NCBI GenBank assembly: GCA_964562445.1
Contig: CAZLSZ010000003.1
Span: 693-64,692, forward strand
From: an uncultured Gammaproteobacteria bacterium
GTDB lineage: Bacteria > Patescibacteriota > Microgenomatia > Levybacterales > UBA12049
Reading direction: 5' to 3'
Length of the DNA stretch: 64,000 bases
This document shows, one piece after another, positions 2,072 through 58,241 of the stretch (position 1 is the first letter of the stretch; every line of letters begins with the position of its first letter). A program made the position numbers and the translations under genes. Below the pieces are notes generated by a model that was not told where the DNA came from, ran no database searches, and saw only the letters and a list, made by a program, of their open reading frames with translations.

Positions 2072-3490
2072 ATGCCTTTCTCTGCTATACTAGTGAGTAT
2101 GGTTTTTGGAAAAGATAAAATAATAGGTACATTTGCCCCGGTCTTTTCCCTCAGAAGCTCCGTACAAGAAAAAGATGATTATGGAACTTTTGAGTCGGGA
2201 ATAATTTTTTTGGATTGGTTACATCAGACACGACAGCACGCGTGGCAGATGCTTCCTCTCAACGAAACACAAATTGAAAAGGGATCAAAAACAAAACATG
2301 TCCCGTCACCGTATAAAGGATACGGCATAGGTCTTGATCCGAAATTTCTTTCAGCTGCATATAAAAAAACGAACCCATCACCGTATCAGTTGGATGAATT
2401 CATTGCGAAACACGATTTTTGGATAAAAGATTATGCGCTTTTTTGCGCGCTTCGTGATGCGTTTGGGACAGATGATTGGAGAGAATGGGAAACGGATATC
2501 AAAATGTGTAATGAAAACGCAATTAAAGAATGGGAAGAAAAGTTACAAAAAGAAATTGCATTTTATATCACTCAACAATGGCAATTGCATGAATCCTATC
2601 AACAGCTGCATCAAAAAGCAAACGAATTAGATGTATTATTAATTGGCGATGTTCCGTTTTATTTATCCCTCAATAGTCCTTTGGTATGGAGACATAAGTC
2701 TTTTTTTGAAATAAATGATCGGGGAGAAATGACGCATGTCTCAGGGGCAGTTACTAAAAAATTTTCTCATTTTGGGAGACAAGTTTGGGGGCATCCATTG
2801 TATACCTATAAAGATATACAAGCGACTATAACATTCTGGAAAAAACGAATTGAGTACACATCTTTTTTGTTCGATATTATACGATTTGATTATGCTGCTG
2901 GTTTTTTTGAATATGCAGCAAAAGACCCGAGAGATCCGAAAAATGATGAAGAAAGAACCGGTCCCGGTGAATCATTTTTCGGATCTCTTATCGATTATGC
3001 GCATGAAAAAGAGATCCGTGTTTTTGCCGAAGACAGCGGAAAACACGTCCAACAACTTCGTGAGTATATGGCATCTCGTACTATCCCTGGTATACGGATA
3101 TTCAGATATGCCTATGATGAATTACGTGATTGTATAAACCCTTATTATGCAAATATCTCTGAGTATCCGGCGCGTTCTATTATTTATTCGACAACACATG
3201 ACACTGAGACAATAGTGAGTTATTTACATTTATTGGATGCCAAACAGAGGAATGCTTTATGTCATTATATGCAAATTTCAGATAAACATTCTATAAATGA
3301 TATGGCAGAACGTCTTCGTTCTAAAGTAATTCATTCGAGTGCGAATACTATTATTATCCCTATACAAGATTGGCTTTTGTCAGAAAATCGCATCAATGTA
3401 CCCGGTACAGAAAAAGAAATAGATGATAAAAATTGGCAGTATATGATTGAAACCCCAATTGAGGATCTTCCGAGAAATATATTTGAGTAG
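2072..3490 (+). CDS. malQ: 4-alpha-glucanotransferase (amylomaltase, GH77)
   Basis: SPYKGYGIGLDPKF (SPY motif), DDWREWE, and FYITQQWQLHES...LLIGDVPFYLSLNSPLVW match the GH77 catalytic-region pattern (FxQW...IGDxPxYV). Confidence 0.7.
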   Translation: MPFSAILVSMVFGKDKIIGTFAPVFSLRSSVQEKDDYGTFESGIIFLDWLHQTRQHAWQMLPLNETQIEKGSKTKHVPSPYKGYGIGLDPKFLSAAYKKTNPSPYQLDEFIAKHDFWIKDYALFCALRDAFGTDDWREWETDIKMCNENAIKEWEEKLQKEIAFYITQQWQLHESYQQLHQKANELDVLLIGDVPFYLSLNSPLVWRHKSFFEINDRGEMTHVSGAVTKKFSHFGRQVWGHPLYTYKDIQATITFWKKRIEYTSFLFDIIRFDYAAGFFEYAAKDPRDPKNDEERTGPGESFFGSLIDYAHEKEIRVFAEDSGKHVQQLREYMASRTIPGIRIFRYAYDELRDCINPYYANISEYPARSIIYSTTHDTETIVSYLHLLDAKQRNALCHYMQISDKHSINDMAERLRSKVIHSSANTIIIPIQDWLLSENRINVPGTEKEIDDKNWQYMIETPIEDLPRNIFE

Positions 3491-3571
3491 TTAGGAATTT
3501 ATATTTTGAAAGCATACTGTCATGCTGAGCTATATGGTAGATTCAATAATATCGTATAATATTCAACCATC

Positions 3572-3597
3572 GTCATTCCCGCGAAAGCGGGAATGAC
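3572..3597. repeat. REP-like palindromic unit GTCATTCCCGCGAAAGCGGGAATGAC (perfect 26-nt palindrome)
   Basis: Intergenic between malQ and the beta-lactamase-like gene. Member of the GGAATGAC-armed palindrome family seen throughout the window. Confidence 0.7.
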
Positions 3598-3669
3598 GAA
3601 ACGGATCCCGAAATAACAAGAAATATTCTTAATGAAAAATACGATACTTTGTGAGATGATAAATAAGCT

Positions 3670-8111: not shown

Positions 8112-10655
8112 ATGGAAGTGAGTGATAAAACGCTGGGATATTACGCGTCGAAGAATGCTGACGATGTTCTGAAGGAATTGGACGTAACAGAAAAGGGGCT
8201 CGGTGAGTCGGAAGCTTCCAAAAGGATTAAAAAGTATGGTTACAATGTTATTGCTCAGGAAAAGAAAAATCATTGGATAATTGAATATCTCCTCAATTTT
8301 AAAGATCCGCTTGTTCTTATTTTATTATTCGCCGCTATCATCTCGTATGTGCTGGGTGAAACAGTTAACGCGGCTATTATATTTATTATTATTTTATTCA
8401 GTACGACATTGAATTTTTTTCAGGAATTTAATGCCAGCAATGCCGCGAAAAAACTGCGTGAGAAAATAGCAACGGATACGACTGTCATCCGAGAAGGGAA
8501 ACAACAGGAAATTAAAATAAAGAATGTCAGTGTGGGAGATATTATTTTCTTGAACGCGGGAGATATTATTCCCGCAGATGCAAGAATTTTGGAAGCGAAA
8601 GACTTCTTTGTCAATCAGTCATCGCTCACAGGAGAATCATTCCCTGTTGAAAAAACATCATCTGTGCTCCACACAAAACATGAATCTGTGACCGATATTA
8701 CAAATAGTGTTTTTTCGGGAAGTAGTGTGATTACAGGTTCAGCGATAGCGGTAGTTGTACAGACAGGGGCAAATACAGAGTTCGGAAAAATCGCCGAAAA
8801 ACTTGCCGAGACTCCTGTACAAAGTGAATTTACGATTGGTGTCAAAAATTTCAGTTTGATGATTATGCGGATCACAATGTTCTTTGTCCTTTTCATCTTT
8901 CTTTTTACCATCTTTTTTAAGCATACACAGTTGTTGGAGGCATTTACTTTTTCTATCGCTGTTGCTGTAGGTCTGACGCCTGAGCTGCTTCCGATGATTA
9001 TGTCTATCACCATGGCCAAGGGCTCATTAACCATGGCGAAAAAAGGTGTCATTGTCAAAAAATTAGCTGCCATACCGGACTTTGGAGAAATGAATCTACT
9101 TTGTACTGATAAAACAGGGACCCTGACACAGGATAAAATTGAGCTTGTGAAATATATGGATGTAACTGGCGCACATTCTGAGAATGTACTGCTCTATTCC
9201 TACCTCAATAGTTATTATCAGACGGGGATTAAAAATCCGATGGACGAGGCGGTAATACGTTTTAAAAGAGAAGATATTCATCTCTATAAAAAGGTAGATG
9301 AGATCCCGTTTGATTTTGAGAGAAAAAGGATGAGTGTGATTGTGGATAGTCACCATAAACGATTTCTTATCACCAAGGGTGCGCCTGAAGAAATTCTTCC
9401 GATATGTGATCATTATCAGAAGAAAGATGAAGAAAAAAAGATCTCCGGATTTATCCATAAAGAAATGTTGGAATTATACCGCTCGCTCAGTAGAGACGGT
9501 TTTCGTGTATTAGGAGTTGCGATAAAGGAGATGTCTGAGAAGAAAAAAACGTATTCCAAACATGATGAATCTGGTATGCGGTTTATCGGTTTTATCGCGT
9601 TTCTTGATCCTGCAAAAGCGGACGTTAAAAGTGTCTTAGCAGATCTGGAATCTATGGGAATTGAGACAAAAATTATTACCGGTGACAATGAGTTGGTGAC
9701 ACAAAAAATATGTAGAGAAGTTGGATTGCCGATCAAAGGAGTTCTGTTGGGGAAAGACATTGAAAAAATGACCCTTGATTCACTTCGAGTGATTGCAGCA
9801 AAGACAACTATTTTTGCGAGGTGTTCACCTGTCGTAAAAAATAAAGTATTGCAGGCATTGAAATCGGGAGGATATGTGATCGGGTATATGGGAGATGGTA
9901 TTAATGATGCCCCCGCGCTCAAGACAGCGGATGTGGGTATTTCGGTCAATAATGCAGTTGATGTTGCCAAAGAATCTGCAGATATGATTTTGACGCACAA
10001 AAGTTTGGGACAGCTTCGGGACGGCGTTCTAGAAGGACGCAAGACATTCGGGAATACGATGAAATATATCATGATGGGTATTAGTTCGAGTTTTGGTAAT
10101 ATGTTTAGTGTCCTCGGAGCCGTACTTTTCCTGCCGTTTCTTCCCATGCTTCCGATTCAGATTTTACTCAATAATTTACTGTATGATCTGTCACAGATTT
10201 CTATCCCTACGGATAATGTGGATAAAGAGTATTTACAAAAACCCAAGAGATGGGATATGCAATTTATAAAAAATTTTATGTTTACATTCGGACCGATCAG
10301 TTCGTTTTTTGATTTCCTTACATTTTATGTTTTGTATTCTGTATATAAATTATCAGCAGGTGGATTTCAGACGGGATGGTTTATGGAGTCTATAGCGACA
10401 CAAACGCTCATCATCCTTATTATCAGGACGAGACACGTGGCATTTTTGCAGAGTAACGCGAGTAAATATTTATTCTTTTCGACGGTTGTCGTAGTCGCGA
10501 TAGGGTGGATTATTCCGTATACACGATTCGGTGCGTACTTGCAGTTTCAGCCGCTTCCATTACATATTGTATCGTCACTGGTGATGATCGTGATAGGGTA
10601 TATGATTACAATTGAAATAGGGAAAAGAATATTTTATCGATATCATCCTCAGTAG
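8112..10655 (+). CDS. mgtA: Magnesium-translocating P-type ATPase (MgtA-like, type IIIB)
   Basis: DKTGTLT phosphorylation site, TGES-like actuator motif (LTGES), GDGINDAPALKTADVGISV hinge, 10 TM helices. N-terminus is similar to MgtA proteins. Confidence 0.75.
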   Translation: MEVSDKTLGYYASKNADDVLKELDVTEKGLGESEASKRIKKYGYNVIAQEKKNHWIIEYLLNFKDPLVLILLFAAIISYVLGETVNAAIIFIIILFSTTLNFFQEFNASNAAKKLREKIATDTTVIREGKQQEIKIKNVSVGDIIFLNAGDIIPADARILEAKDFFVNQSSLTGESFPVEKTSSVLHTKHESVTDITNSVFSGSSVITGSAIAVVVQTGANTEFGKIAEKLAETPVQSEFTIGVKNFSLMIMRITMFFVLFIFLFTIFFKHTQLLEAFTFSIAVAVGLTPELLPMIMSITMAKGSLTMAKKGVIVKKLAAIPDFGEMNLLCTDKTGTLTQDKIELVKYMDVTGAHSENVLLYSYLNSYYQTGIKNPMDEAVIRFKREDIHLYKKVDEIPFDFERKRMSVIVDSHHKRFLITKGAPEEILPICDHYQKKDEEKKISGFIHKEMLELYRSLSRDGFRVLGVAIKEMSEKKKTYSKHDESGMRFIGFIAFLDPAKADVKSVLADLESMGIETKIITGDNELVTQKICREVGLPIKGVLLGKDIEKMTLDSLRVIAAKTTIFARCSPVVKNKVLQALKSGGYVIGYMGDGINDAPALKTADVGISVNNAVDVAKESADMILTHKSLGQLRDGVLEGRKTFGNTMKYIMMGISSSFGNMFSVLGAVLFLPFLPMLPIQILLNNLLYDLSQISIPTDNVDKEYLQKPKRWDMQFIKNFMFTFGPISSFFDFLTFYVLYSVYKLSAGGFQTGWFMESIATQTLIILIIRTRHVAFLQSNASKYLFFSTVVVVAIGWIIPYTRFGAYLQFQPLPLHIVSSLVMIVIGYMITIEIGKRIFYRYHPQ

Positions 10656-25435: not shown

Positions 25436-26590
25436 ATGAATCTATCGGTCGGAATTGTGGGGTTGCCGAACGTCGGTAAAAGCACCCTCTTTAATGCACT
25501 TTTAAAAAAACAGGCTGCGTTAGCGGCAAATTATCCCTTTGCGACTATCGAACCCAATGTCGGGGCTGTGCCGGTGCCGGATTATCGTCTGGAGAAGCTG
25601 GCGGAGGTAACGGCTAATGAGATTGCCACTCCTGCTTTGCAGGATCGCAATGACAAGTCCCTTTGGCCGCCGATAAAACCCGCCATTATTGAATTTGTTG
25701 ATATAGCGGGACTGGTCAAAGGAGCATCCGAAGGAGCAGGGCTTGGCAATAAATTTCTCTCCCACATCCGAGAAGTAAAAATAATTGCGCATGTGGTGCG
25801 CGGATTTACTGATGATGATGTCGTGCGGGAGGGGAGTACTGATCCGAAATCCGATTATGAAGTTATCCAAACAGAGCTGATTATGGCAGACTTGCAGACA
25901 GTGGAAAAACAGCGGGAAAGTAAAGCCGTCAAAACTAATGCCGTCAAAAAGTCAGCTGTTGATAAATTGTATCGGGGACTGAATGAAGGGAAAGCCGCAA
26001 GAGATATCCAAATGACGGAAGAAGAGAGGGCATCGGTACTGGATTTGTTTCTCCTCTCCCAGAAACCTGAAATAATTGTCCTCAATGTGGATGAAAATGA
26101 TTATAATCCAGAAGGAATTGCGGAAGTGACGAAAAAGTATGAAGAGTTATTAGGGATTGATTCTCCTGTTTTGCAGGATCGCAATGACAATAGAATAGTT
26201 GTTATTTGTGCCAAGATTGAGGCAGAACTTGCCTCCCTCTCCGATGAAGAACAGAAAGAGTATCTCGCTGATCTCGGTTTGGAAGCATCCGGACTCGAAA
26301 GACTCATCCAAAAAGCGTATACAGAACTCGGTTTAATTTCATTTCTCACGGCAGGGGAGAAGGAAGTCAAAGCATGGACTATTAAAAAAGGCATCAATGC
26401 TCAAGAGGCATCAGGAACGATTCATAATGATTTTGTAAAGAAGTTTATCAAGGCAGAAGTTATCTCTTTTGATGACTATATCGCTATAGGAGGCCGCAAA
26501 AAAGCCCGTGAAGTAGGGAAAGCGCGTATGGAAGGGCGGGATTATATCGTCCAAGACGGCGATGTGATTGAGTTTAAGATAGGAAGTTAA
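25436..26590 (+). CDS. ychF: Ribosome-binding ATPase YchF (Obg-family GTPase)
   Basis: [18 protein letters not shown]-loop, [18 protein letters not shown], and the C-terminal TGS domain DGDVIEFK. Carries two extra in-frame segments relative to canonical YchF (see repeats below). Confidence 0.85.
25619..25654. repeat. REP-like unit GAGATTGCCACTCC-TGCTTTGCAGGA-TCGCAATGAC lying in frame inside ychF
   Basis: Same architecture as the intergenic units at 49161..49197 and 58203..58241. Encodes [14 protein letters not shown] within a loop region of YchF. Confidence 0.65.
26155..26188. repeat. Second REP-like unit (GATTGATTC-TCCTGTTTTGCAGGA-TCGCAATGAC) in frame inside ychF
   Basis: The 25-nt TCCTGTTTTGCAGGATCGCAATGAC is an exact reverse-complement match to intergenic 33460..33484. 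Encodes [10 protein letters not shown]. Confidence 0.65.
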
Positions 26591-33459: not shown

Positions 33460-33590
33460 GTCATTGCGATCCTGCAAAACAGGAGACCTGCCTGCCGGCA
33501 GGCAGGAGCAATCTCAAACAACATACAACAAAGAACAGAAAACAGTTATAAGTTTTTAGTTACTAGAGAGACCCCTGGCGCGAGGATGAC
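33460..33590. repeat. ~130-nt composite repeat element (reverse orientation relative to the 49068..49197 copy)
   Basis: Its reverse complement aligns along its length with 49068..49197, including a shared core TCTCTCTAGTAACTAAAAACTTATAACTGTTTTCTGTTC(A/T)TTGTTGTATGTT. Ends in GTCATTGCG / GGATGAC arms. Contains perfect inner palindromes CCTGCCTGCCGGCAGGCAGG and TCCTGTTTTGCAGGA. Confidence 0.7.
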
Positions 33591-33706
33591 ATACATCATG
33601 CATATGTATAAATCCCTCTCTTGACAACGTGTAGGCTTCATATAGTACTATAGATATGGTGATACTTTTCACAAAGAATTTCACATACATGAGGTAGGTG
33701 ATAGTC

Positions 33707-33866
33707 TATGAAGAAAACAAAAGTTGCTCCAAAAGCTGCCAAAACAAAATCCGTAAAAAGAGTTCGAAGGTCATCTTCGACACATGCAACAGAACATGAC
33801 TTTCTTATTATTCTCGGTGGAGGATTGGTAGTTTTGCTTCTTACTATTTTCCTTTTTATTCAATAG
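33707..33866 (+). CDS. Possible small membrane protein (52 aa) with a basic N-terminus and C-terminal TM helix
   Basis: ATG preceded by a GAGGTAGGTGATAG Shine-Dalgarno-like sequence. MKKTKVAPKAAKTKSVKRVRR...LIILGGGLVVLLLTIFLFIQ. Below the ORF-track size cut-off; weak. Confidence 0.2.
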
Positions 33867-35319
33867 GTAAAGCTTTCTGCATAAGTGAAATTTTATTCTG
33901 ATTTGCAGGATTTGCGATAAACTGTCTCAGAATTTTGTATATATCCAAATCGAAGTATACTTCATTATTTTTGTCGTTATTTATATTTCCTTCTTCATCT
34001 ACGACCACTTTTGCTTTGTAACACCAATTATCGATAATATAATATTCTTTCTTCCCACTCATCTCGGATTCTTGTATAGAGATCGGACCTTTATATGGCC
34101 ATGGTAATATTTTGAGTTCATTGACCGCGGTAATAAGCCGTATATTGTGTTGTATAGGTAGTTCTTTTGCGGTACACGCACCATTACACTTACCGAGTCT
34201 ATAAGCGAAACATGACGTGGATGTTTTTTCTAGGCCGAGCAGTTTCTCGCACAATGTATATTCTTTCGCGATAGCGGCAAGATATGCTTTTGCTTGTCTT
34301 TTTGATCTGAAAAAACCCAGAAAGTTGTCCAGTTTTTCCGGCTTAATGAGAGTAATGGGCTCCATATAGCATTCCAAGTATCCTTGTTTTGTCATTCGGC
34401 TTTTAAGAGCGATTAATTCATGCTTGATTCTTGAGCGTTTATTATATAATGGCAGCATTTCTTTAATTAACTTGGATTCGAGTAAGAGAGCTCCCAATTC
34501 ACCTGATGTCGTAACAGTTTCTATACTTTCTATTTGCTGGGCGATTCGCATTTCTGTAGGAGAAGAGAGGTCGGATGCGAAGTGACTGAGTACACGATTG
34601 CGTATATTGATACTTTTTCCTACATAGAGAGGGATACTATTTTTTTTCTGTTCGGATATGTTTTTCGGATCTTTTAGTCCTTTCGGTTCATTGCCATAAA
34701 AGATATAGACACCGGGTTTGTCGGGAAGTTTATCCAATTCCTGCATCGGCAGATTGACCGGCAAGGACGGTTTCTTTATCGTTTTGGCAAAGGCTTTTTC
34801 AAGTTGTTCGGGTGAATGCGATGCCAGTACATGTTTGTAAAAATGAAATAAGACCTGCGCATCATCAAAGGCTCTATGGCGGTTTGTACAGTCGATTCCG
34901 CAATGCTGTATAAGCGCGTCCAGATTGTGTCTAGGCCACTCCGGGTAGAGAAATCGGGATAATCGTACTGTACAAAAATGCCTGGCGTTATAGGTGAAAT
35001 TTTGTCTGATAAATTCACTTTTTATAAATCCGTAATCAAATCGGACATTGTGCGCCACAAAAGTGCAATCGTCAAGAATGGAGAGGATGTCATCTTTGAC
35101 ACTTCGAAAGGTGGGTGCATCTGCAAGCATATCTTCTGATATTCCTGTGATGCCGGTAATTTCTTTGGGGATATATGTTTGGGGATTGATGAGAGATTGA
35201 AAGGTATTTATCAGTTCGCCATTTTCTACCCGCAGGATGCCTATTTCGATAATTCTATCATGGGTTGATCGCATTCCTGTGGTTTCGATATCAACAAAAG
35301 CGAGCTTGGTAGGCAGCAT
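33856..35319 (-). CDS. DnaQ-like 3'-5' exonuclease fused to a GIY-YIG (UvrC N-terminal-like) nuclease domain (Cho-like excinuclease)
   Basis: FVDIETTGMRSTHDRIIEIG (Exo I), HNVRFDYGF (Exo II) and FDDAQV (Exo III), then GVYIFYG...LYVGKSINIRNRVLSHF (GIY-YIG). The alternative upstream start at 35421 would add 34 aa that are encoded by a REP-like unit (GTCATTGCG...). Confidence 0.7.
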   Translation of the reverse strand: MLPTKLAFVDIETTGMRSTHDRIIEIGILRVENGELINTFQSLINPQTYIPKEITGITGISEDMLADAPTFRSVKDDILSILDDCTFVAHNVRFDYGFIKSEFIRQNFTYNARHFCTVRLSRFLYPEWPRHNLDALIQHCGIDCTNRHRAFDDAQVLFHFYKHVLASHSPEQLEKAFAKTIKKPSLPVNLPMQELDKLPDKPGVYIFYGNEPKGLKDPKNISEQKKNSIPLYVGKSINIRNRVLSHFASDLSSPTEMRIAQQIESIETVTTSGELGALLLESKLIKEMLPLYNKRSRIKHELIALKSRMTKQGYLECYMEPITLIKPEKLDNFLGFFRSKRQAKAYLAAIAKEYTLCEKLLGLEKTSTSCFAYRLGKCNGACTAKELPIQHNIRLITAVNELKILPWPYKGPISIQESEMSGKKEYYIIDNWCYKAKVVVDEEGNINNDKNNEVYFDLDIYKILRQFIANPANQNKISLMQKALPIE

Positions 35320-35421
35320 AGTATCAGTTATTGTAGAATTGTTTGGAAAAAATTGCAAACTGAACCGTGCACCATGATTATCATTCTGATCCGTCAATTG
35401 GCGGACTCTTCGCAATGACAA

Positions 35422-36303
35422 TTAGCTAGTGAGGGCTTCCAGTTCTTCTTTTTCTTCGGGGATGTCACCATCCATAATCAGCGGAAGATTTTTCCAAGAT
35501 TTATTGATTCGATGATCGGTGAGTCTGTCTTGCGGGAAATTATATGTTTTAATTTTTTCTGACCTATCACCACGTCCCACCTGAGTTGATCTTAGAGAGG
35601 AAATTTCTTCCTGTTGCTTTGTCAGTTCAATCTCCCAGAGCTTTGCACGTAAAAGCTGCATAGCAATTTCTCTGTTCTGGAGCTGTGATCGTTCTACAGA
35701 AGTGGTTACAACCAGCCCGGAGGGTGTATGTTTCAAACGGACGGCAGTGGACACTTTATTGACATTTTGCCCGCCATGTCCGCCTGAACGGAACGCTTCA
35801 AATTCGATATCTTCCGGATTAATATGCAGATCGATATCATCAAGTTCAGGAAGGATGGAAACAGTCGCTGTCGATGTATGCACACGTCCCTTTTTTTCCG
35901 TCACCGGAATGCGTTGTACACGGTGTACACCTGCTTCATACTTATATGTCCCGAAAGCTCCATGTCCATTTATTTTGATGACATTTTCTTCAAGTTGTTC
36001 TACCTGAAACCCTTTTTTTTGCGCTGATCGAGTATACATCCGCATGAGCTCTTCTGCCCAGATTTTTGCTTCATCTCCGCCTGCCGCGCCGCTGAGTTCA
36101 AGAAGGATATTCCGATGATCATAACTTTCTTCCTGTTTAGCATTTGAGGTGTTTAGACTTTCCTGGATTGCTCTTTTTTGTTCCTCTAAAGAATCTATCT
36201 CCTGTTGTGCCAGTTCGGCCATAGAGGGATCTTCCAGGAGCGTTTTAGCTTCCTCAATTTGCTTTTCAAGTTCTTCTATTTGTGTGTAGCGATAGTCATT
36301 CAT
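35422..36303 (-). CDS. prfA: Peptide chain release factor 1, with a shortened N-terminal domain (293 aa)
   Basis: RIPVTEKKGRVHTS (PxT tripeptide anticodon motif of RF1, not the SPF of RF2) and SGGHGGQNVNK (GGQ). No frameshift site. The gene starts 36 nt downstream of rpmE, leaving no room for a longer N-terminus. Confidence 0.8.
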   Translation of the reverse strand: MNDYRYTQIEELEKQIEEAKTLLEDPSMAELAQQEIDSLEEQKRAIQESLNTSNAKQEESYDHRNILLELSGAAGGDEAKIWAEELMRMYTRSAQKKGFQVEQLEENVIKINGHGAFGTYKYEAGVHRVQRIPVTEKKGRVHTSTATVSILPELDDIDLHINPEDIEFEAFRSGGHGGQNVNKVSTAVRLKHTPSGLVVTTSVERSQLQNREIAMQLLRAKLWEIELTKQQEEISSLRSTQVGRGDRSEKIKTYNFPQDRLTDHRINKSWKNLPLIMDGDIPEEKEELEALTS

Positions 36304-49067: not shown

Positions 49068-49197
49068 GTCATCCCCAGCTTGACTGGGGATCTCTCTAGT
49101 AACTAAAAACTTATAACTTATAACTGTTTTCTGTTCATTGTTGTATGTTTTACGTTATATGAGATTGCCACTCCGCCAGCTGGCGGATCGCAATAAC
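49068..49197. repeat. ~130-nt composite repeat element (forward copy): GTCATCC-hairpin, shared core, then GTTTTACGTTATATGAGATTGCCACTCC-GCCAGCTGGCGG-ATCGCAATAAC
   Basis: Aligns end-to-end with the reverse complement of 33460..33590. The 3' module matches 58183..58241, which has a different but still palindromic inner hairpin (TGCAGTGCAGG versus GCCAGCTGGCGG). An additional degenerate unit lies at 49018..49046. Confidence 0.7.
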
Positions 49198-53362: not shown

Positions 53363-53419
53363 TTTGATATCCAGTTAGAGATTGCTTCACCCCTTTCCGC
53401 TCGTAATGACAATCTTATA

Positions 53420-55963
53420 TTATTTTGTTTCAGCTTTTAATTTGTGACCCTTTCCAAAGAATTTTCTCCCTATAAGTTTATGAAACTCTACGGCAAGAAC
53501 AGGCGTCACAAATCCTACTACTGTCGTCCAGAGGATGTCGTGGAGTGAAATCGGGTGAAGATTAAGTAACTTTGTAAATACACCCATCATCGCGGCAATC
53601 TGCATACTTACAGCGATAGTTAGCCCGAAATAAAATGCTGGACTAAATCTACGAATGCGTTTGAAAAGAGATTCATAATCACTACGGTAATTAAACGCGC
53701 TCGCCCATTGCATCACGACGAGCGCGTGAAATGCCATTGTACGTGCATAGTCGACTCCATGTATTTTGATAGATGTGGTATAAAGCCACATGGTCAGTAC
53801 AGCCATAGTAATTGATACAAGTAAAATACGTGAGATCATAAAATGGCTGAAGAGGGGAGCATCCGGAGCTTGTAGGGGCTTGTTCATATTGCGTTTTTCG
53901 CCCGGTTCCAGACCGAGCGGGATAACCATGCAGGTATCTGTCGCGAGATTTACCCACAAAATTTGTACCGGTGCAAGAGGGACAGGGATACCAGCGATCA
54001 GAGAGGACAATGCGACAAATACTTCTCCCGTATTTGTGGAGATGAGATACGCTACCATGCGTTTGATATTGGCATAAATAGTCCGTCCCTCATGGATTGC
54101 ATTGACTATCGAACGGAAATTATTATCCAAAAGAATGATGTCGCCCGCATCTTTGGCAATACTTGCACCGCTTCCCATAGCGACTCCTACATGCGCTCCA
54201 GCGAGCGCTGGTACATCATTGACCCCGTCACCTGTCATGGCGGTAATATTATGCTTTTTGAGAATAATGAGTATACGATGTTTGTGCTCAGGGATAACTC
54301 GAGCAAAAACGCGTATATTTTCTATCATTTTTTCCAATTCTTCGTCATTCATCTCATGCATTTTTCGGCTGTCAAAGACTTGATTCCGATTCTCGATCAT
54401 ACCGAGTTGTTTGCCTATGTGGTATGCTGTTTCGAAATGATCACCGGTAATCATTCGTACTGTTATCCCGGCATTTGCTGCGATTTTGATCGCCTGTTTC
54501 GCTTCAGCGCGGAGAACGTCTGCTACTCCGACAAATCCATCAAAGGCGAATTTTGCAGACTTCGGAAGTTCTTCAAATGTATCGATAGTTTCATAATTAT
54601 CCAAATGCGCAATTGCGATGACACGATAGCCTTGACTGGCAAGTTCCTGCATTTTTTTCTCTGCTTCAATTTTTTCATCATGATTCAGTTTTGATTTATC
54701 GATAATCCTTTCCGGAGCACCTTTTACCCAAAGAGTTTGCCTTCCACCTTCTTCGATGACATTCCCGCTCATGGCGGATTCAAGAGAGAAGGGGAACTGC
54801 TGGATAATTTTTATTTTATGCGCGTTTTTCTTTTTTGAAGAAACATATTGCATGAGTGCAGTATCGAGCGGATCATGCACTTTGGTTTCAGAGTGATTGA
54901 CAGCCCGCTCAAGGGCGGAAAGTATGTGGTTGGGGCGATGGGGAAGGTGCCATGTTTGTTGTACTGTCAGTCTGTTCTCCGTAAGAGTACCTGTTTTATC
55001 CGTCGCGATTGTGGTGATTGTGCCGACTGTTTCTATAGCGCGCATGGCCCGCACAAGAGCTTTTTTTGCGGCCATGCGCCGCATTCCCAATACCAATACT
55101 ACTGTAATGGCTACGGCAAGGCTTTCAGGGACAGCACTCACTGATAAAGCGAGAACATAACGTATACTATCTGCTACATCTACACCTCTATAAACTGAAA
55201 GACAAAACGCGATAAGCGCAATAGCGGCGATAACTCGTATAATTTGGTTTATTAATTTATCGATTTTAATTTGTACAGGGCTATGTTCGGGTGTAGCGAC
55301 ACTCAGTGCAGCCAGACGCCCAAATTCAGTATCATTTCCTGTTGCTACCACGACTGCTTCGGCATGTCCGCCCACCACGAAGGAACCTTGAAAAACCATA
55401 TTTGATTGTTCATAAATTTCCTTGCCTTCCGAGAGAGGATCTATTTGTTTTTGGATAGGAAGTGATTCTCCCGTAAGTTGCGATTCATCAACCCTTAGGG
55501 AGTTTACCAATGTCAGTCTAGCATCCGCCGGTATTTTTTCACCCTCATCAATTATGATAATGTCTCCTGGCACGAGGTCTTCTGCATTAACTCTTATTAT
55601 TTCTTTGTCTCGCATCACATCTACGAGGAATTTGTCCCTTTTTTGGAGAGAGCGGAGAATGCGTTCCGTAGAAAAACGTTGGATATAATAAATCAGAGAA
55701 TTTATTCCCATGATAGCACCAATTATCCACGCATCTACATACGCGTCATGCATGATACTAATGATAACTGCGACAAAGAGAACACCCATAAATATGTTAC
55801 GGAAAGGTTCTATGATTTTTTGCCACAATGGTTCGCCTTTTATATTAATGATGTTTTTGCCGTATTGCGCGAGACGTTCTGCATAGACTGTTTTGGATAA
55901 TCCTTCGGAAGTGGAGTCAAGTTCTTTCAGTGTTTGGTCTATTGTCTTGCTGTAAAAACTCAT
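53420..55963 (-). CDS. Cation-transporting P-type ATPase (type II, Ca2+/PMCA-SERCA-like)
   Basis: DKTGTLT, TGES (LTGES), and GDGVNDVPALAGAHVGVAMG. 847 aa with 10 TM helices. Confidence 0.8.
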   Translation of the reverse strand: MSFYSKTIDQTLKELDSTSEGLSKTVYAERLAQYGKNIINIKGEPLWQKIIEPFRNIFMGVLFVAVIISIMHDAYVDAWIIGAIMGINSLIYYIQRFSTERILRSLQKRDKFLVDVMRDKEIIRVNAEDLVPGDIIIIDEGEKIPADARLTLVNSLRVDESQLTGESLPIQKQIDPLSEGKEIYEQSNMVFQGSFVVGGHAEAVVVATGNDTEFGRLAALSVATPEHSPVQIKIDKLINQIIRVIAAIALIAFCLSVYRGVDVADSIRYVLALSVSAVPESLAVAITVVLVLGMRRMAAKKALVRAMRAIETVGTITTIATDKTGTLTENRLTVQQTWHLPHRPNHILSALERAVNHSETKVHDPLDTALMQYVSSKKKNAHKIKIIQQFPFSLESAMSGNVIEEGGRQTLWVKGAPERIIDKSKLNHDEKIEAEKKMQELASQGYRVIAIAHLDNYETIDTFEELPKSAKFAFDGFVGVADVLRAEAKQAIKIAANAGITVRMITGDHFETAYHIGKQLGMIENRNQVFDSRKMHEMNDEELEKMIENIRVFARVIPEHKHRILIILKKHNITAMTGDGVNDVPALAGAHVGVAMGSGASIAKDAGDIILLDNNFRSIVNAIHEGRTIYANIKRMVAYLISTNTGEVFVALSSLIAGIPVPLAPVQILWVNLATDTCMVIPLGLEPGEKRNMNKPLQAPDAPLFSHFMISRILLVSITMAVLTMWLYTTSIKIHGVDYARTMAFHALVVMQWASAFNYRSDYESLFKRIRRFSPAFYFGLTIAVSMQIAAMMGVFTKLLNLHPISLHDILWTTVVGFVTPVLAVEFHKLIGRKFFGKGHKLKAETK

Positions 55964-56133: not shown

Positions 56134-56162
56134 GAGAGATTCCCAGTCAAGCTGGGAATGAC
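56134..56162. repeat. REP-like unit GAGAGATTCCCAGTCAAGCTGGGAATGAC
   Basis: Same outer arms as 58133..58161 (GAGAGATTCCCGATCAGGTCGGGAATGAC) but with a different self-complementary inner stem. Confidence 0.7.
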
Positions 56163-56331: not shown

Positions 56332-56440
56332 GTCATTCCGGACTTGATCCGGAATCTCCAAGGAAAAGATTCTGAAACAAGTTCAGGATGACAGATTTAT
56401 TTGCGATTGCTTCGCCGAGCTGAGCTCGGCTCGCAATGAC
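56332..56440. repeat. Cluster of REP-like units downstream of the tRNA (GTCATTCCGGACTTGATCCGGAATC; CAGGATGACAGATT; GATTGCTTCGCCGAGCTGAGCTCGGCTCGCAATGAC)
   Basis: Units at 56332..56356 and 56405..56440. The CAGRATGACAGATT motif also occurs at 56076..56090. Confidence 0.65.
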
Positions 56441-58066: not shown

Positions 58067-58241
58067 GTCATTCTGGCTTGTCCAGAATCTGATCCTGGAG
58101 TCCTCGTTCTACTCGTCCCCAGAATGACAAAAGAGAGATTCCCGATCAGGTCGGGAATGACATTTGTTATATCAGTCTTTAGTGTTATGTTTTGCGTTAT
58201 ATGAGATTGCCACTCCTGCAGTGCAGGAGCCTTGCAATGAC
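58067..58241. repeat. Cluster of REP-like units between pepA and efp, including a copy of the GTTTTGCGTTATATGAGATTGCCACTCC-hairpin-CTTGCAATGAC module
   Basis: Units at 58067..58093 (GTCATTCTGGCTTGTCCAGAATC), 58133..58161 and 58183..58241. The last unit aligns with 49141..49197. Confidence 0.7.

Follow-up and report, generated by a model that had tools for sequence, protein, structure and literature searches.

The ychF gene in a 64-kb window of DNA from a member of the Levybacteria (Candidate Phyla Radiation, CPR; contig CAZLSZ010000003.1 of assembly GCA_964562445.1) contains two copies of a dispersed palindromic repeat, which we call family A, inserted in frame at two positions, site 1 and site 2. 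The window is the whole stretch analysed, and positions are counted from its first base. Absence of the inserts from most orthologues, their position in loops of the predicted protein and their match to intergenic hairpin units of the same window support the interpretation of both segments as lineage-specific, in-frame copies of the repeat. We think it probable, further, that they are solo copies of a hairpin repeat that were absorbed into the ychF frame, that the two loops have been occupied recurrently, and that family A is cognate to small GIY-YIG nucleases of the Ssn type.

Two repeat units in the ychF reading frame

The open reading frame (ORF) 25436..26590 is intact and runs unbroken across both units (list of ORFs with translations), as the initial annotation of this DNA had reported, and the 14- and 10-residue peptide segments are encoded as first written. 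The product is a YchF/OLA1 ATPase. It matches both MMR_HSR1 (PF01926) and YchF-GTPase_C (PF06071) in Pfam, phmmer searches against solved structures returned T. thermophilus YchF (2DBY; E = 2e-92) and E. coli YchF (E = 5.5e-87), and the P-loop G domain, the YchF C-terminal (TGS-like) domain and the overall fold are all present. The gene had also been labelled essential, which is not established; YchF is dispensable in E. coli.

The two units are connected to the intergenic repeat by the 25-mer TCCTGTTTTGCAGGATCGCAATGAC, which occurs exactly at 26164..26188 (site 2), with one mismatch at 25630..25654 (site 1), and exactly on the minus strand at intergenic 33460..33484. The last of these is the reverse-complement match noted in the initial annotation; the three matches compare with 0.00 expected (100 shuffles). 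The shorter word TCGCAATGAC occurs seven times in the window (0.15 expected), and at least seven further family members are intergenic there, so that the match is not limited to the ychF pair. At site 1, the strand that carries the tag of the family (TGTCATTGCGA...GGCAATCTC; see below) is the template strand of ychF, and the unit is predicted to fold as a DNA hairpin (-7.6 kcal/mol, z = -3.3). The site-2 unit has a degenerate left end, GGGATTGATTC where GAGATTGCCAC is expected, and its hairpin taken alone is not significant (z = -1.2). The repeat unit is free of stop codons in five of its six frames.

The closest YchF proteins, from Candidatus Levybacteria and other Microgenomates, are at most 78% identical to that of the window. 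The commonest length of Levybacteria YchF is 367 residues, with both segments absent, and the loops of empty alleles read ITKEEEKMxGLPPIKPA (site 1) and ELLxQxEDKFVVICAK (site 2). Codon alignments of orthologue DNA, with nine and then eleven loci, contain clean empty alleles in L085, L003 and L087 and an allele empty at site 1 in L001. In filled alleles the unit begins GAG ATT GC, ends CGC AAT GAC and is always in the same phase; both flanks are collinear with those of the orthologous alleles and the frame is kept. The prediction that relatives would lack the extra residues was thus borne out. Compared with the 367-residue empty allele, the window protein gains 9 residues at site 1 and 8 at site 2, less than a 36-nt unit encodes, so part of each unit takes the place of native loop codons. 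The earlier statement that the inserts lie exactly where this YchF is longer than others therefore stands as to place and needs amending as to extent.

We examined an AlphaFold model of the window YchF (118 sequences; mean predicted local distance difference test score, pLDDT, 85.7), which superposes on the 50S-bound E. coli YchF (8kie_y; TM 0.82/0.86) and on 2DBY. In this model both inserts sit in loops, as had been anticipated. Site 1 (residues 62-76) is placed between helix 50-63 and strand 84-89, which carries the DxxG motif, and site 2 (residues ~241-251) between helix 225-238 and strand 254-257; residues 242-248 at site 2 are the sole stretch with pLDDT below 50. Both inserts also fall opposite gaps in alignments with the solved YchF structures.

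In a tree built without the loop columns, the nearest relatives of the window YchF are P0077 and P0048, encoded at loci L082 and L081, respectively. Site 2 is empty in both, which places the gain of the site-2 unit in the window's own lineage. At site 1 both loci have a unit that equals the window's in codon position and in length, from which it follows that site 1 was occupied before the split. The central 19 nt of this unit in L081 and L082 (TTCGTCG...CTCCT, no hairpin) are unrelated to the window core CACTCCTGCTTTGCAGGAT, and the window core matches the window's site-2 and intergenic copies. The core at site 1 was therefore replaced later, presumably through a second insertion or through conversion by another copy. 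The 33460 copy is likewise new, since the intergenic block that contains it (~150 nt) is missing from this spacer in L081 and L082, where the stop codon leads straight into a conserved promoter-like TTGACA...TATAGT. In the spacer that separates the release-factor gene from the exonuclease gene, the window, L081 and L082 each have their own, different member of the repeat superfamily. Independent assemblies from other samples contain the same kind of YchF insert.

Probable recurrent occupancy of the two YchF loops

Among 121 YchF sequences, site 1 is filled in 39 and site 2 in 35, with at least five insert peptide families per site. Family-A inserts read EIA(S/T)...PRND or ...LAMT and, in reverse orientation, VTASEAKQS and IANEVKQSH; other inserts read EILKQVQDD (family B, the type of the 56366 unit), PSTGSGQ, HKASEGQG, ILRLASFAQDD and GFRIESGMT (the 58135 type). 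These peptides are translations of different hairpin repeats, and in some alleles at least two units follow one another in tandem, adding as many as 47 residues. Distant CPR YchF proteins (48-52% identity; L017, L019, L047 and L208) from a Daviesbacteria metagenome-assembled genome (MAG), unclassified MAGs and a metagenome contig have family-A units in the same two loops.

The idea that family A occurs only in ychF was dropped: it holds in YchF-centred loci, and in an unbiased sample most copies are intergenic. Across 481 kb of CPR loci, the signature peptides occur 15 times in YchF and once in the tail of the single-stranded DNA-binding protein (SSB). This sole match outside YchF (L084, 12823..13383) is a disordered SSB C-terminal tail with HSTSSGQTKA, typical of the PSTGSGQ hairpin family.

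Parsimony on a neighbour-joining tree requires ~30 changes of state for site 1 and 19 for site 2, counts that are upper bounds because the single-gene tree is approximate and because flank substitutions are common to different families. At site 1 (25610..25670) Thr is followed by Ala in 32 of 39 filled alleles and by Lys in 66 of 82 empty ones, and Leu is replaced by Trp before Pro-Pro in nine alleles; residues farther from the site stay clade-specific. The substitutions are common to alleles filled by different repeat families. Many apparently independent events may be exchange or recombination at one old occupied allele, and in this respect the flanks tell against a history of repeated arrivals. 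The best account of the flank pattern is that cores turned over at an allele already filled, perhaps with the help of short-patch recombination between lineages; dozens of fresh insertions would fit it less well.

We propose that family A is a small non-autonomous hairpin repeat, solo copies of which would have joined the ychF frame and would be read as extra loop residues. Persistence of a copy in a gene would need an open frame and a fold that tolerates a longer loop; the two loops of the YchF G domain would qualify, and units would have landed there time and again in Levybacteria and other CPR groups. In the genome of the window, site 2 would be a recent lineage-specific gain and site 1 an ancestral occupancy held in common with two sister lineages, its core having presumably been swapped for a hairpin variant that this genome is now amplifying.

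Each site is a loop that is disordered or variable, and selection alone could have confined the copies to them: insertion would be random, copies would survive only in tolerant loops of YchF and similar ones, and there would be neither targeting nor exchange. The unbiased metagenome sample (see below) agrees with this explanation in being mostly intergenic, in having in-frame copies in many unrelated proteins and in that ychF holds one of 131 copies among the matches listed. What such filtering leaves unexplained is the regularity of the filled alleles. Codon, orientation (~20 forward vs ~3 reverse) and frame are the same in nearly all lineages even though five of the six frames are open; sister lineages have identical boundaries and unrelated cores; the flank changes are common to different families; the orthologous intergenic spacer likewise has a different member per lineage; and in 20 CPR loci fetched regardless of inserts, though centred on YchF, seven of eight family-A units lie in the ~6% of the sequence that is ychF. 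We regard selection alone as a possible explanation, if not a likely one.

The turnover of cores could be carried further, to loops that serve as a conserved cassette-exchange site, where the conserved hairpin ends would let an Ssn-type nuclease, or recombination during transformation, swap in whichever family is active. We put this forward tentatively and consider it doubtful. If true, a universally conserved gene would contain a fast-turning, horizontally exchanged selfish module across Microgenomates, and the module might also be a built-in break point for homologous recombination within ychF.

A function of the inserts in YchF or in its mRNA, such as a lineage-specific interaction surface or a regulatory hairpin, appears quite unlikely. 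The loops are filled in ~30% of sampled orthologues from several CPR classes, and substitutions common to filled alleles could be compensatory; yet occupancy is patchy, two thirds of orthologues are without any insert, the peptides differ wholly by family (EIAS..PRND, EILKQVQDD, PSTGSGQ, GFRIESGMT), the inserts are modelled at low confidence, and the same units are mostly intergenic.

As a separate observation on this gene, on two Levybacteria contigs (L086, 8443..10053; L089, 8398..10035) a large serine recombinase gene (Resolvase, Recombinase, Zn_ribbon_recom) ends within the first ychF codons, so that an integrative element may use the 5' end of ychF as its attachment site. The ychF alleles of both loci have the EILKQVQDDKSKW cassette at site 1.

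A hairpin family associated with small GIY-YIG nuclease genes

Family A comprises ~9 units in the window found by scanning for both unit ends (also denoted GTCATTGCGA... units), two in ychF and seven intergenic (Table 1). Window units of all types are 27-56 nt long. All 15 have TGTC or CGTC adjoining a stem that begins AT, and on the tagged strand every unit has the layout (T/C)GTC, AT...palindrome...AT, then C-TC, with symmetric units (e.g. 3570 and 46003) ending in GAC. The family-A DNA fold consists of a basal stem ATTGC/GCAAT, a small internal loop (CAC / TC), an apical stem of 5-7 bp and a loop of 3-4 nt (3 nt in the ychF units), and the sequence of the apical stem varies from copy to copy. 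Hairpins of intact window units have z between -2.4 and -5.6; those of the site-2 and decayed (53378) copies are not significant. Signature-peptide and DNA scans of the window gave no in-frame copies besides those in ychF, and Rfam 15 covariance models run on the window gave tRNA only, at the gathering threshold and at E <= 1.

Table 1. Coordinates of ychF and of the repeat units in the window.
Feature	Position	Strand	Basis or remark
ychF coding sequence, 384 aa, both in-frame repeat units inside	25436..26590	+	ORF list, Pfam, AlphaFold model
Site-1 unit GAGATTGCCACTCCTGCTTTGCAGGATCGCAATGAC, read as a 12-residue peptide	25619..25654	+	Most orthologues without it
Site-2 unit GGGATTGATTCTCCTGTTTTGCAGGATCGCAATGAC, read as a 12-residue peptide	26153..26188	+	Right 27 nt identical to the intergenic copy at 33460
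Family-A unit, two apical hairpins (one is the ychF hairpin), 13 nt past the stop codon of a SurA-like gene	33460..33515	-	Fold -14.5 kcal/mol, z -3.9
Family-A unit, degenerate (TGTCATTGCGAAGAGTCCGCCAATTGACGGATCAGAATGA), non-coding, spacer between release-factor and exonuclease genes	35381..35419	-	End scan, orthologue starts
Family-A unit, fully palindromic GTCATTGCGAGGATCCTCGCAATGAC, 3 nt past the dnaB stop codon	46003..46028	.	-11.2 kcal/mol, z -5.6
Family-A unit GAGATTGCCACTCCGCCAGCTGGCGGATCGCAATAAC, intergenic	49161..49197	+	Fold z -3.5
Family-A unit, decayed, hairpin lost, between convergent genes	53378..53410	+	Fold 0 kcal/mol
Family-A unit GCGATTGCTTCGCCGAGCTGAGCTCGGCTCGCAATGAC, intergenic	56403..56440	+	Fold z -2.4
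Family-A unit GAGATTGCCACTCCTGCAGTGCAGGAGCCTTGCAATGAC, intergenic, upstream of efp	58203..58241	+	Fold z -2.7
Short sister-family unit TCGTCATTCCCGCGAAAGCGGGAATGACG, intergenic	3570..3598	.	Like the Neisseria NTS consensus
Short sister-family unit, family B, AAGATTCTGAAACAAGTTCAGGATGAC	56366..56392	+	In ychF of other lineages, EILKQVQDD
Short sister-family unit GTCATCCCCAGCTTGACTGGGGATCTC, 8-bp stem, 5-nt loop	49068..49094	-	End comparison
Short sister-family units, same type as 49068..49094	56136..56162 and 58135..58161

The initial annotation had proposed that 34 N-terminal codons of the exonuclease/GIY-YIG gene are likewise built from a repeat unit. We rejected this: all six orthologues begin MLPxKLAFVDIETTG, which corresponds to the ATG at 35319, and the unit, although real, lies upstream of the true start. 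A 57-nt palindrome at 2931..2987 in the GH77 (4-alpha-glucanotransferase) gene was ruled out as a simple insertion, since the protein has no extra length compared with solved homologues. This palindrome has a perfect 14-bp stem, GAGATCCGAAAAATGA...TCATTTTTCGGATCTC, roughly estimated to occur by chance at most 0.01 times per 64 kb, and one arm codes for the conserved motif GPGESFF. The units at 49161 and 33460 (49080..49197; 33516..33600, reverse strand) have ~60-70 further left-side bases in common (GGGG(A/T)CTCTCTAGTAACTAAAAACTTATAACT..GTTTTCTGTTC.TTGTTGTATG), which makes both part of a larger composite repeat of ~100 nt; the last ~20 of these bases are common to the 58203 copy.

Beyond the window, a scan of metagenome contigs with the pattern GAGATTGCCAC-N10-30-TCGCAATGAC matched at least 120 contigs, as did a scan of viral contigs with a looser pattern; the exact core TCCTGYTTTGCAGGATCGCAATGAC had no match in the metagenome contigs scanned. 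The following counts from the two scans hold among the matches listed. Because contigs of 48-59% G+C are included, the family extends beyond CPR bacteria. Just one hairpin, of 4 bp or more, is formed by 85 of the 113 distinct CAC-type units, nearly all with a different stem, and units on one contig tend toward the same stem. About three quarters of the metagenome units are not spanned by a long ORF; ~8 lie in phase within genes for identifiable proteins (MurB, SecA, class I LysRS, RNase HII, FolC, a helicase, a radical-SAM enzyme and YchF at site 1).

Covariation supports the hairpin. When 29 units, each 36 nt long, are aligned without gaps, the basal helix ATTGC/GCAAT is the same in 29/29, and all six pairs of the apical helix vary on both sides, in 45 cells vs 15.2 +/- 2.8 in shuffled alignments (0/500 reach this number). 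The apical covariation score is 0.334, vs at most 0.099 with the partners slid. The table contains one G-U pair, so nothing in it is specific to RNA. A reading as functional RNA with UUCG or GNRA tetraloops was dropped when folding gave triloops, and a hairpin in single-stranded DNA fits better. On the GAG strand the triloops are TNC in 20 metagenome and 17 viral units, equivalent to GNA on the tagged strand; triloops of the opposite kind number 2 and 0 (37 vs 2 in total over the two independent samples). In single-stranded DNA, GNA triloops with a closing C-G pair have exceptional stability. The strand bias thus points to a DNA hairpin on the tagged strand.

Ssn-family enzymes are small single-domain GIY-YIG nucleases that bind and cut Neisseria NTS (CGTCATTCCCGCGMAVGCGGGAATCYRG) and SRM (Ssn-related motif) hairpins, and their genes are typically flanked by such hairpins (Chenal et al., 2025; PMC11893778). 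At one of our loci, L094, a gene for a 100-residue single-domain GIY-YIG protein (PF01541, E = 2.6e-14) has family-A units on both sides. One is 12 nt away from the stop codon, the other precedes the start by 74 nt, and the two are inverted relative to each other, their GTC tags pointing outward. Two homologues (P0203 and P0221 groups; 62-63% identity), picked solely for their presence on many contigs, also have family-A-type units on both sides. Family-A units therefore flank small GIY-YIG genes (95-100 residues) in 3/3 metagenomic loci checked and, on this basis, family A behaves like the repeat partner of one branch of Ssn-like nucleases. We suggest that family A is the cognate repeat of that branch and may have been spread or exchanged through such nucleases, or through recombination between copies. 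The cognate nuclease would then cut family-A single-stranded DNA on one strand, to which the strand bias of the GNA triloops lends indirect support.

The flanking of GIY-YIG genes in all three loci also bears on whether the units are instead REPs (repetitive extragenic palindromes) or MITEs (miniature transposable elements with inverted repeats) moved by a tyrosine transposase, either a REP-associated one (RAYT) or one like that of IS200/IS605, or by some other transposase. The units are short, palindromic and conserved at their ends, most lie just downstream of genes, and within a genome they form sub-families, all of which recalls REPs and REPINs; RAYTs act on single-stranded hairpins (PMC11893778). 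Yet the units have no GTAG tag, the window encodes no Y1 transposase, and REPs with a CGTC tag, the class that the window units resemble, have been reported without a dedicated RAYT (Di Nocera et al., 2013; PMC3733652). We consider mobilisation by a transposase rather than by a GIY-YIG nuclease to be improbable. That the segments are an old feature of YchF, with a likeness to the intergenic repeat that is coincidental or an assembly artefact, is hardly credible: the window is a single assembled sequence, and nothing else favours the idea, whereas the exact 25-mer is also intergenic against none expected, close relatives have empty alleles with collinear flanks and an intact frame, and independent assemblies show the same kind of insert.

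Our preferred explanation, absorption of solo hairpin copies that are cognate to Ssn-type nucleases, has to be set against several further points that speak against it. Comparison of empty with filled sites defines no target-site duplication; the unit ends are the inverted repeats ATTGC/GCAAT. A small GIY-YIG (Ssn-like) gene was found neither in the 64-kb window nor in the 481 kb of CPR loci, and we infer, rather than observe, a role of the nuclease in this genome. Likewise, no transposase was found in the window (domain search of ~55 proteins) or in the 481 kb of CPR loci, and no integrase was found in the window. The SRM pattern HGTCWYN(0-2)YYVSBRHN(0-5)WNVSBRGN(0-2)RNCYNB has no match on either strand of the window (0.08 in simulated windows), and the four described CGTC families differ from family A in stem and loop size. 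Both inserts are presumably translated as extra loop residues.

Other genes of the window call for brief comment. The release-factor gene (35422..36303) encodes 293 residues that match PCRF from profile position 40, with a gap of 380 nt up to 36685; its orthologues have 293 residues in L081 and 294 in L087, and the L082 copy ends at the edge of the locus. Either a prfB-type gene with an initial part encoded in a different frame or a shortened CPR form may account for this. A P-type cation ATPase gene occurs twice in the window, with exactly 847 residues each time (8112..10655, plus strand; 53420..55963, minus strand). Between the SurA-like and exonuclease genes (33640..33860), the promoter-like TTGACA...TATAGT is followed by a small conserved ORF (MKKTKVAPKAAKTKS...); both are kept in the same spacer of L081, L082, L084 and L085, where no gene is called over this ORF.

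Relation to known repeat systems

Selfish DNA inside protein-coding genes, a classic curiosity of Rickettsia, is extended by these observations to the CPR. The in-frame repeats are tied to a superfamily whose partner enzyme, Ssn, was identified only in 2025, which supplies a concrete, testable candidate for the way they are recognised. The re-use of the loops by several families, the exchange of the site-1 core, the support from covariation and triloops and the association with small GIY-YIG genes all go beyond the initial annotation. With many lineages, several families and two fixed positions, the YchF loops are a natural experiment on how hairpins arrive, are exchanged, decay and are absorbed into a protein. 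The units also create spurious ORFs and unexplained insertions in the annotation of MAGs, and length variation of CPR marker proteins may often stem from them. Full-text searches of the literature by repeat sequence gave primer coincidences only, and searches on palindromic or in-frame repeats in CPR or Patescibacteria turned up nothing relevant. CPR bacteria are mentioned in neither PMC3733652 nor PMC11893778, and intragenic copies are not mentioned in PMC11893778.

The units had been described at the outset as a direct analogue of Rickettsia palindromic elements (RPEs; Ogata et al., 2000; summaries in PMC10969869 and PMC3733652). This analogy holds. As in RPEs, dispersed palindromic repeats lie in frame in conserved genes and add peptide at positions compatible with the fold, and the window units have the (C/T)GTC tag and AT-first stem of the CGTC-tagged REPs, a class that includes RPE-4 and RPE-6 as well as Neisseria dRS3 (PMC3733652). 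Unlike RPEs, they occur in Levybacteria, a CPR host, rather than in Rickettsia; they are 27-56 nt long, whereas RPE-1 is ~100-150 bp with a conserved peptide; their core is hypervariable; and two ychF sites are re-used by several families across a phylum-level group. The claim of a different lineage is correct as to the host and less novel than it seemed, since REPs inside genes, in frame and outside Rickettsia, were recorded in several species in 2013 (PMC3733652).

CGTC-tagged REPs are defined by a terminal CGTC, TGTC or CCTC, an 8-9-bp AT-first stem, a 4-5-nt loop and a short tail (Di Nocera et al., 2013; PMC3733652). Like these and dRS3, the window units have the tag, a stem that starts A-T/T-A, loops of few bases, a tail that is unpaired, a tendency to cluster in intergenic mosaics and now and then a copy inside a gene, and the short units (3570, 49068, 56136, 56366 and 58135) fit the format of an 8-bp stem and 4-5-nt loop. 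Family A differs in its 5-bp conserved basal stem, internal loop, variable 5-8-bp apical stem and 3-4-nt loop, and in a 3-nt tail that reads CTC (GAC in symmetric units) where the CGTC-REP consensus is CCA; head-to-head dimers are not the rule in the window family. In Xanthomonas recB, different REPs occupy about the same site of the gene in related species, and REPs are also recorded in repair genes (PMC3733652). The recB case concerns two species and one gene family, and in ychF dozens of lineages, two sites and at least five repeat families are involved. From GTAG REPs and REPINs with RAYT the window units differ in being without the GTAG tag.

The Ssn repeats provide a further point of comparison. 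Ssn cleaves single-stranded DNA only and one strand only; the trinucleotide in front of the palindrome is important for cleavage and the C behind it for binding; and in N. meningitidis the system lowers transformation by repeat-carrying DNA (PMC11893778). The window units resemble NTS and SRM as oriented hairpins of 20-50 nt with GTC just upstream of the palindrome, C just after it and a strand-specific hairpin: GTC precedes the palindrome in all units, and C follows it in all except the symmetric GTC...GAC units. The unit at 3570..3598, counted from its CGTC, agrees over 24 nt with positions 1-24 of the N. meningitidis NTS/dRS3 consensus; this unit sits in a CPR genome of 39% G+C. The likeness of the ychF units to RPEs is probably one of homology at the level of the repeat superfamily.

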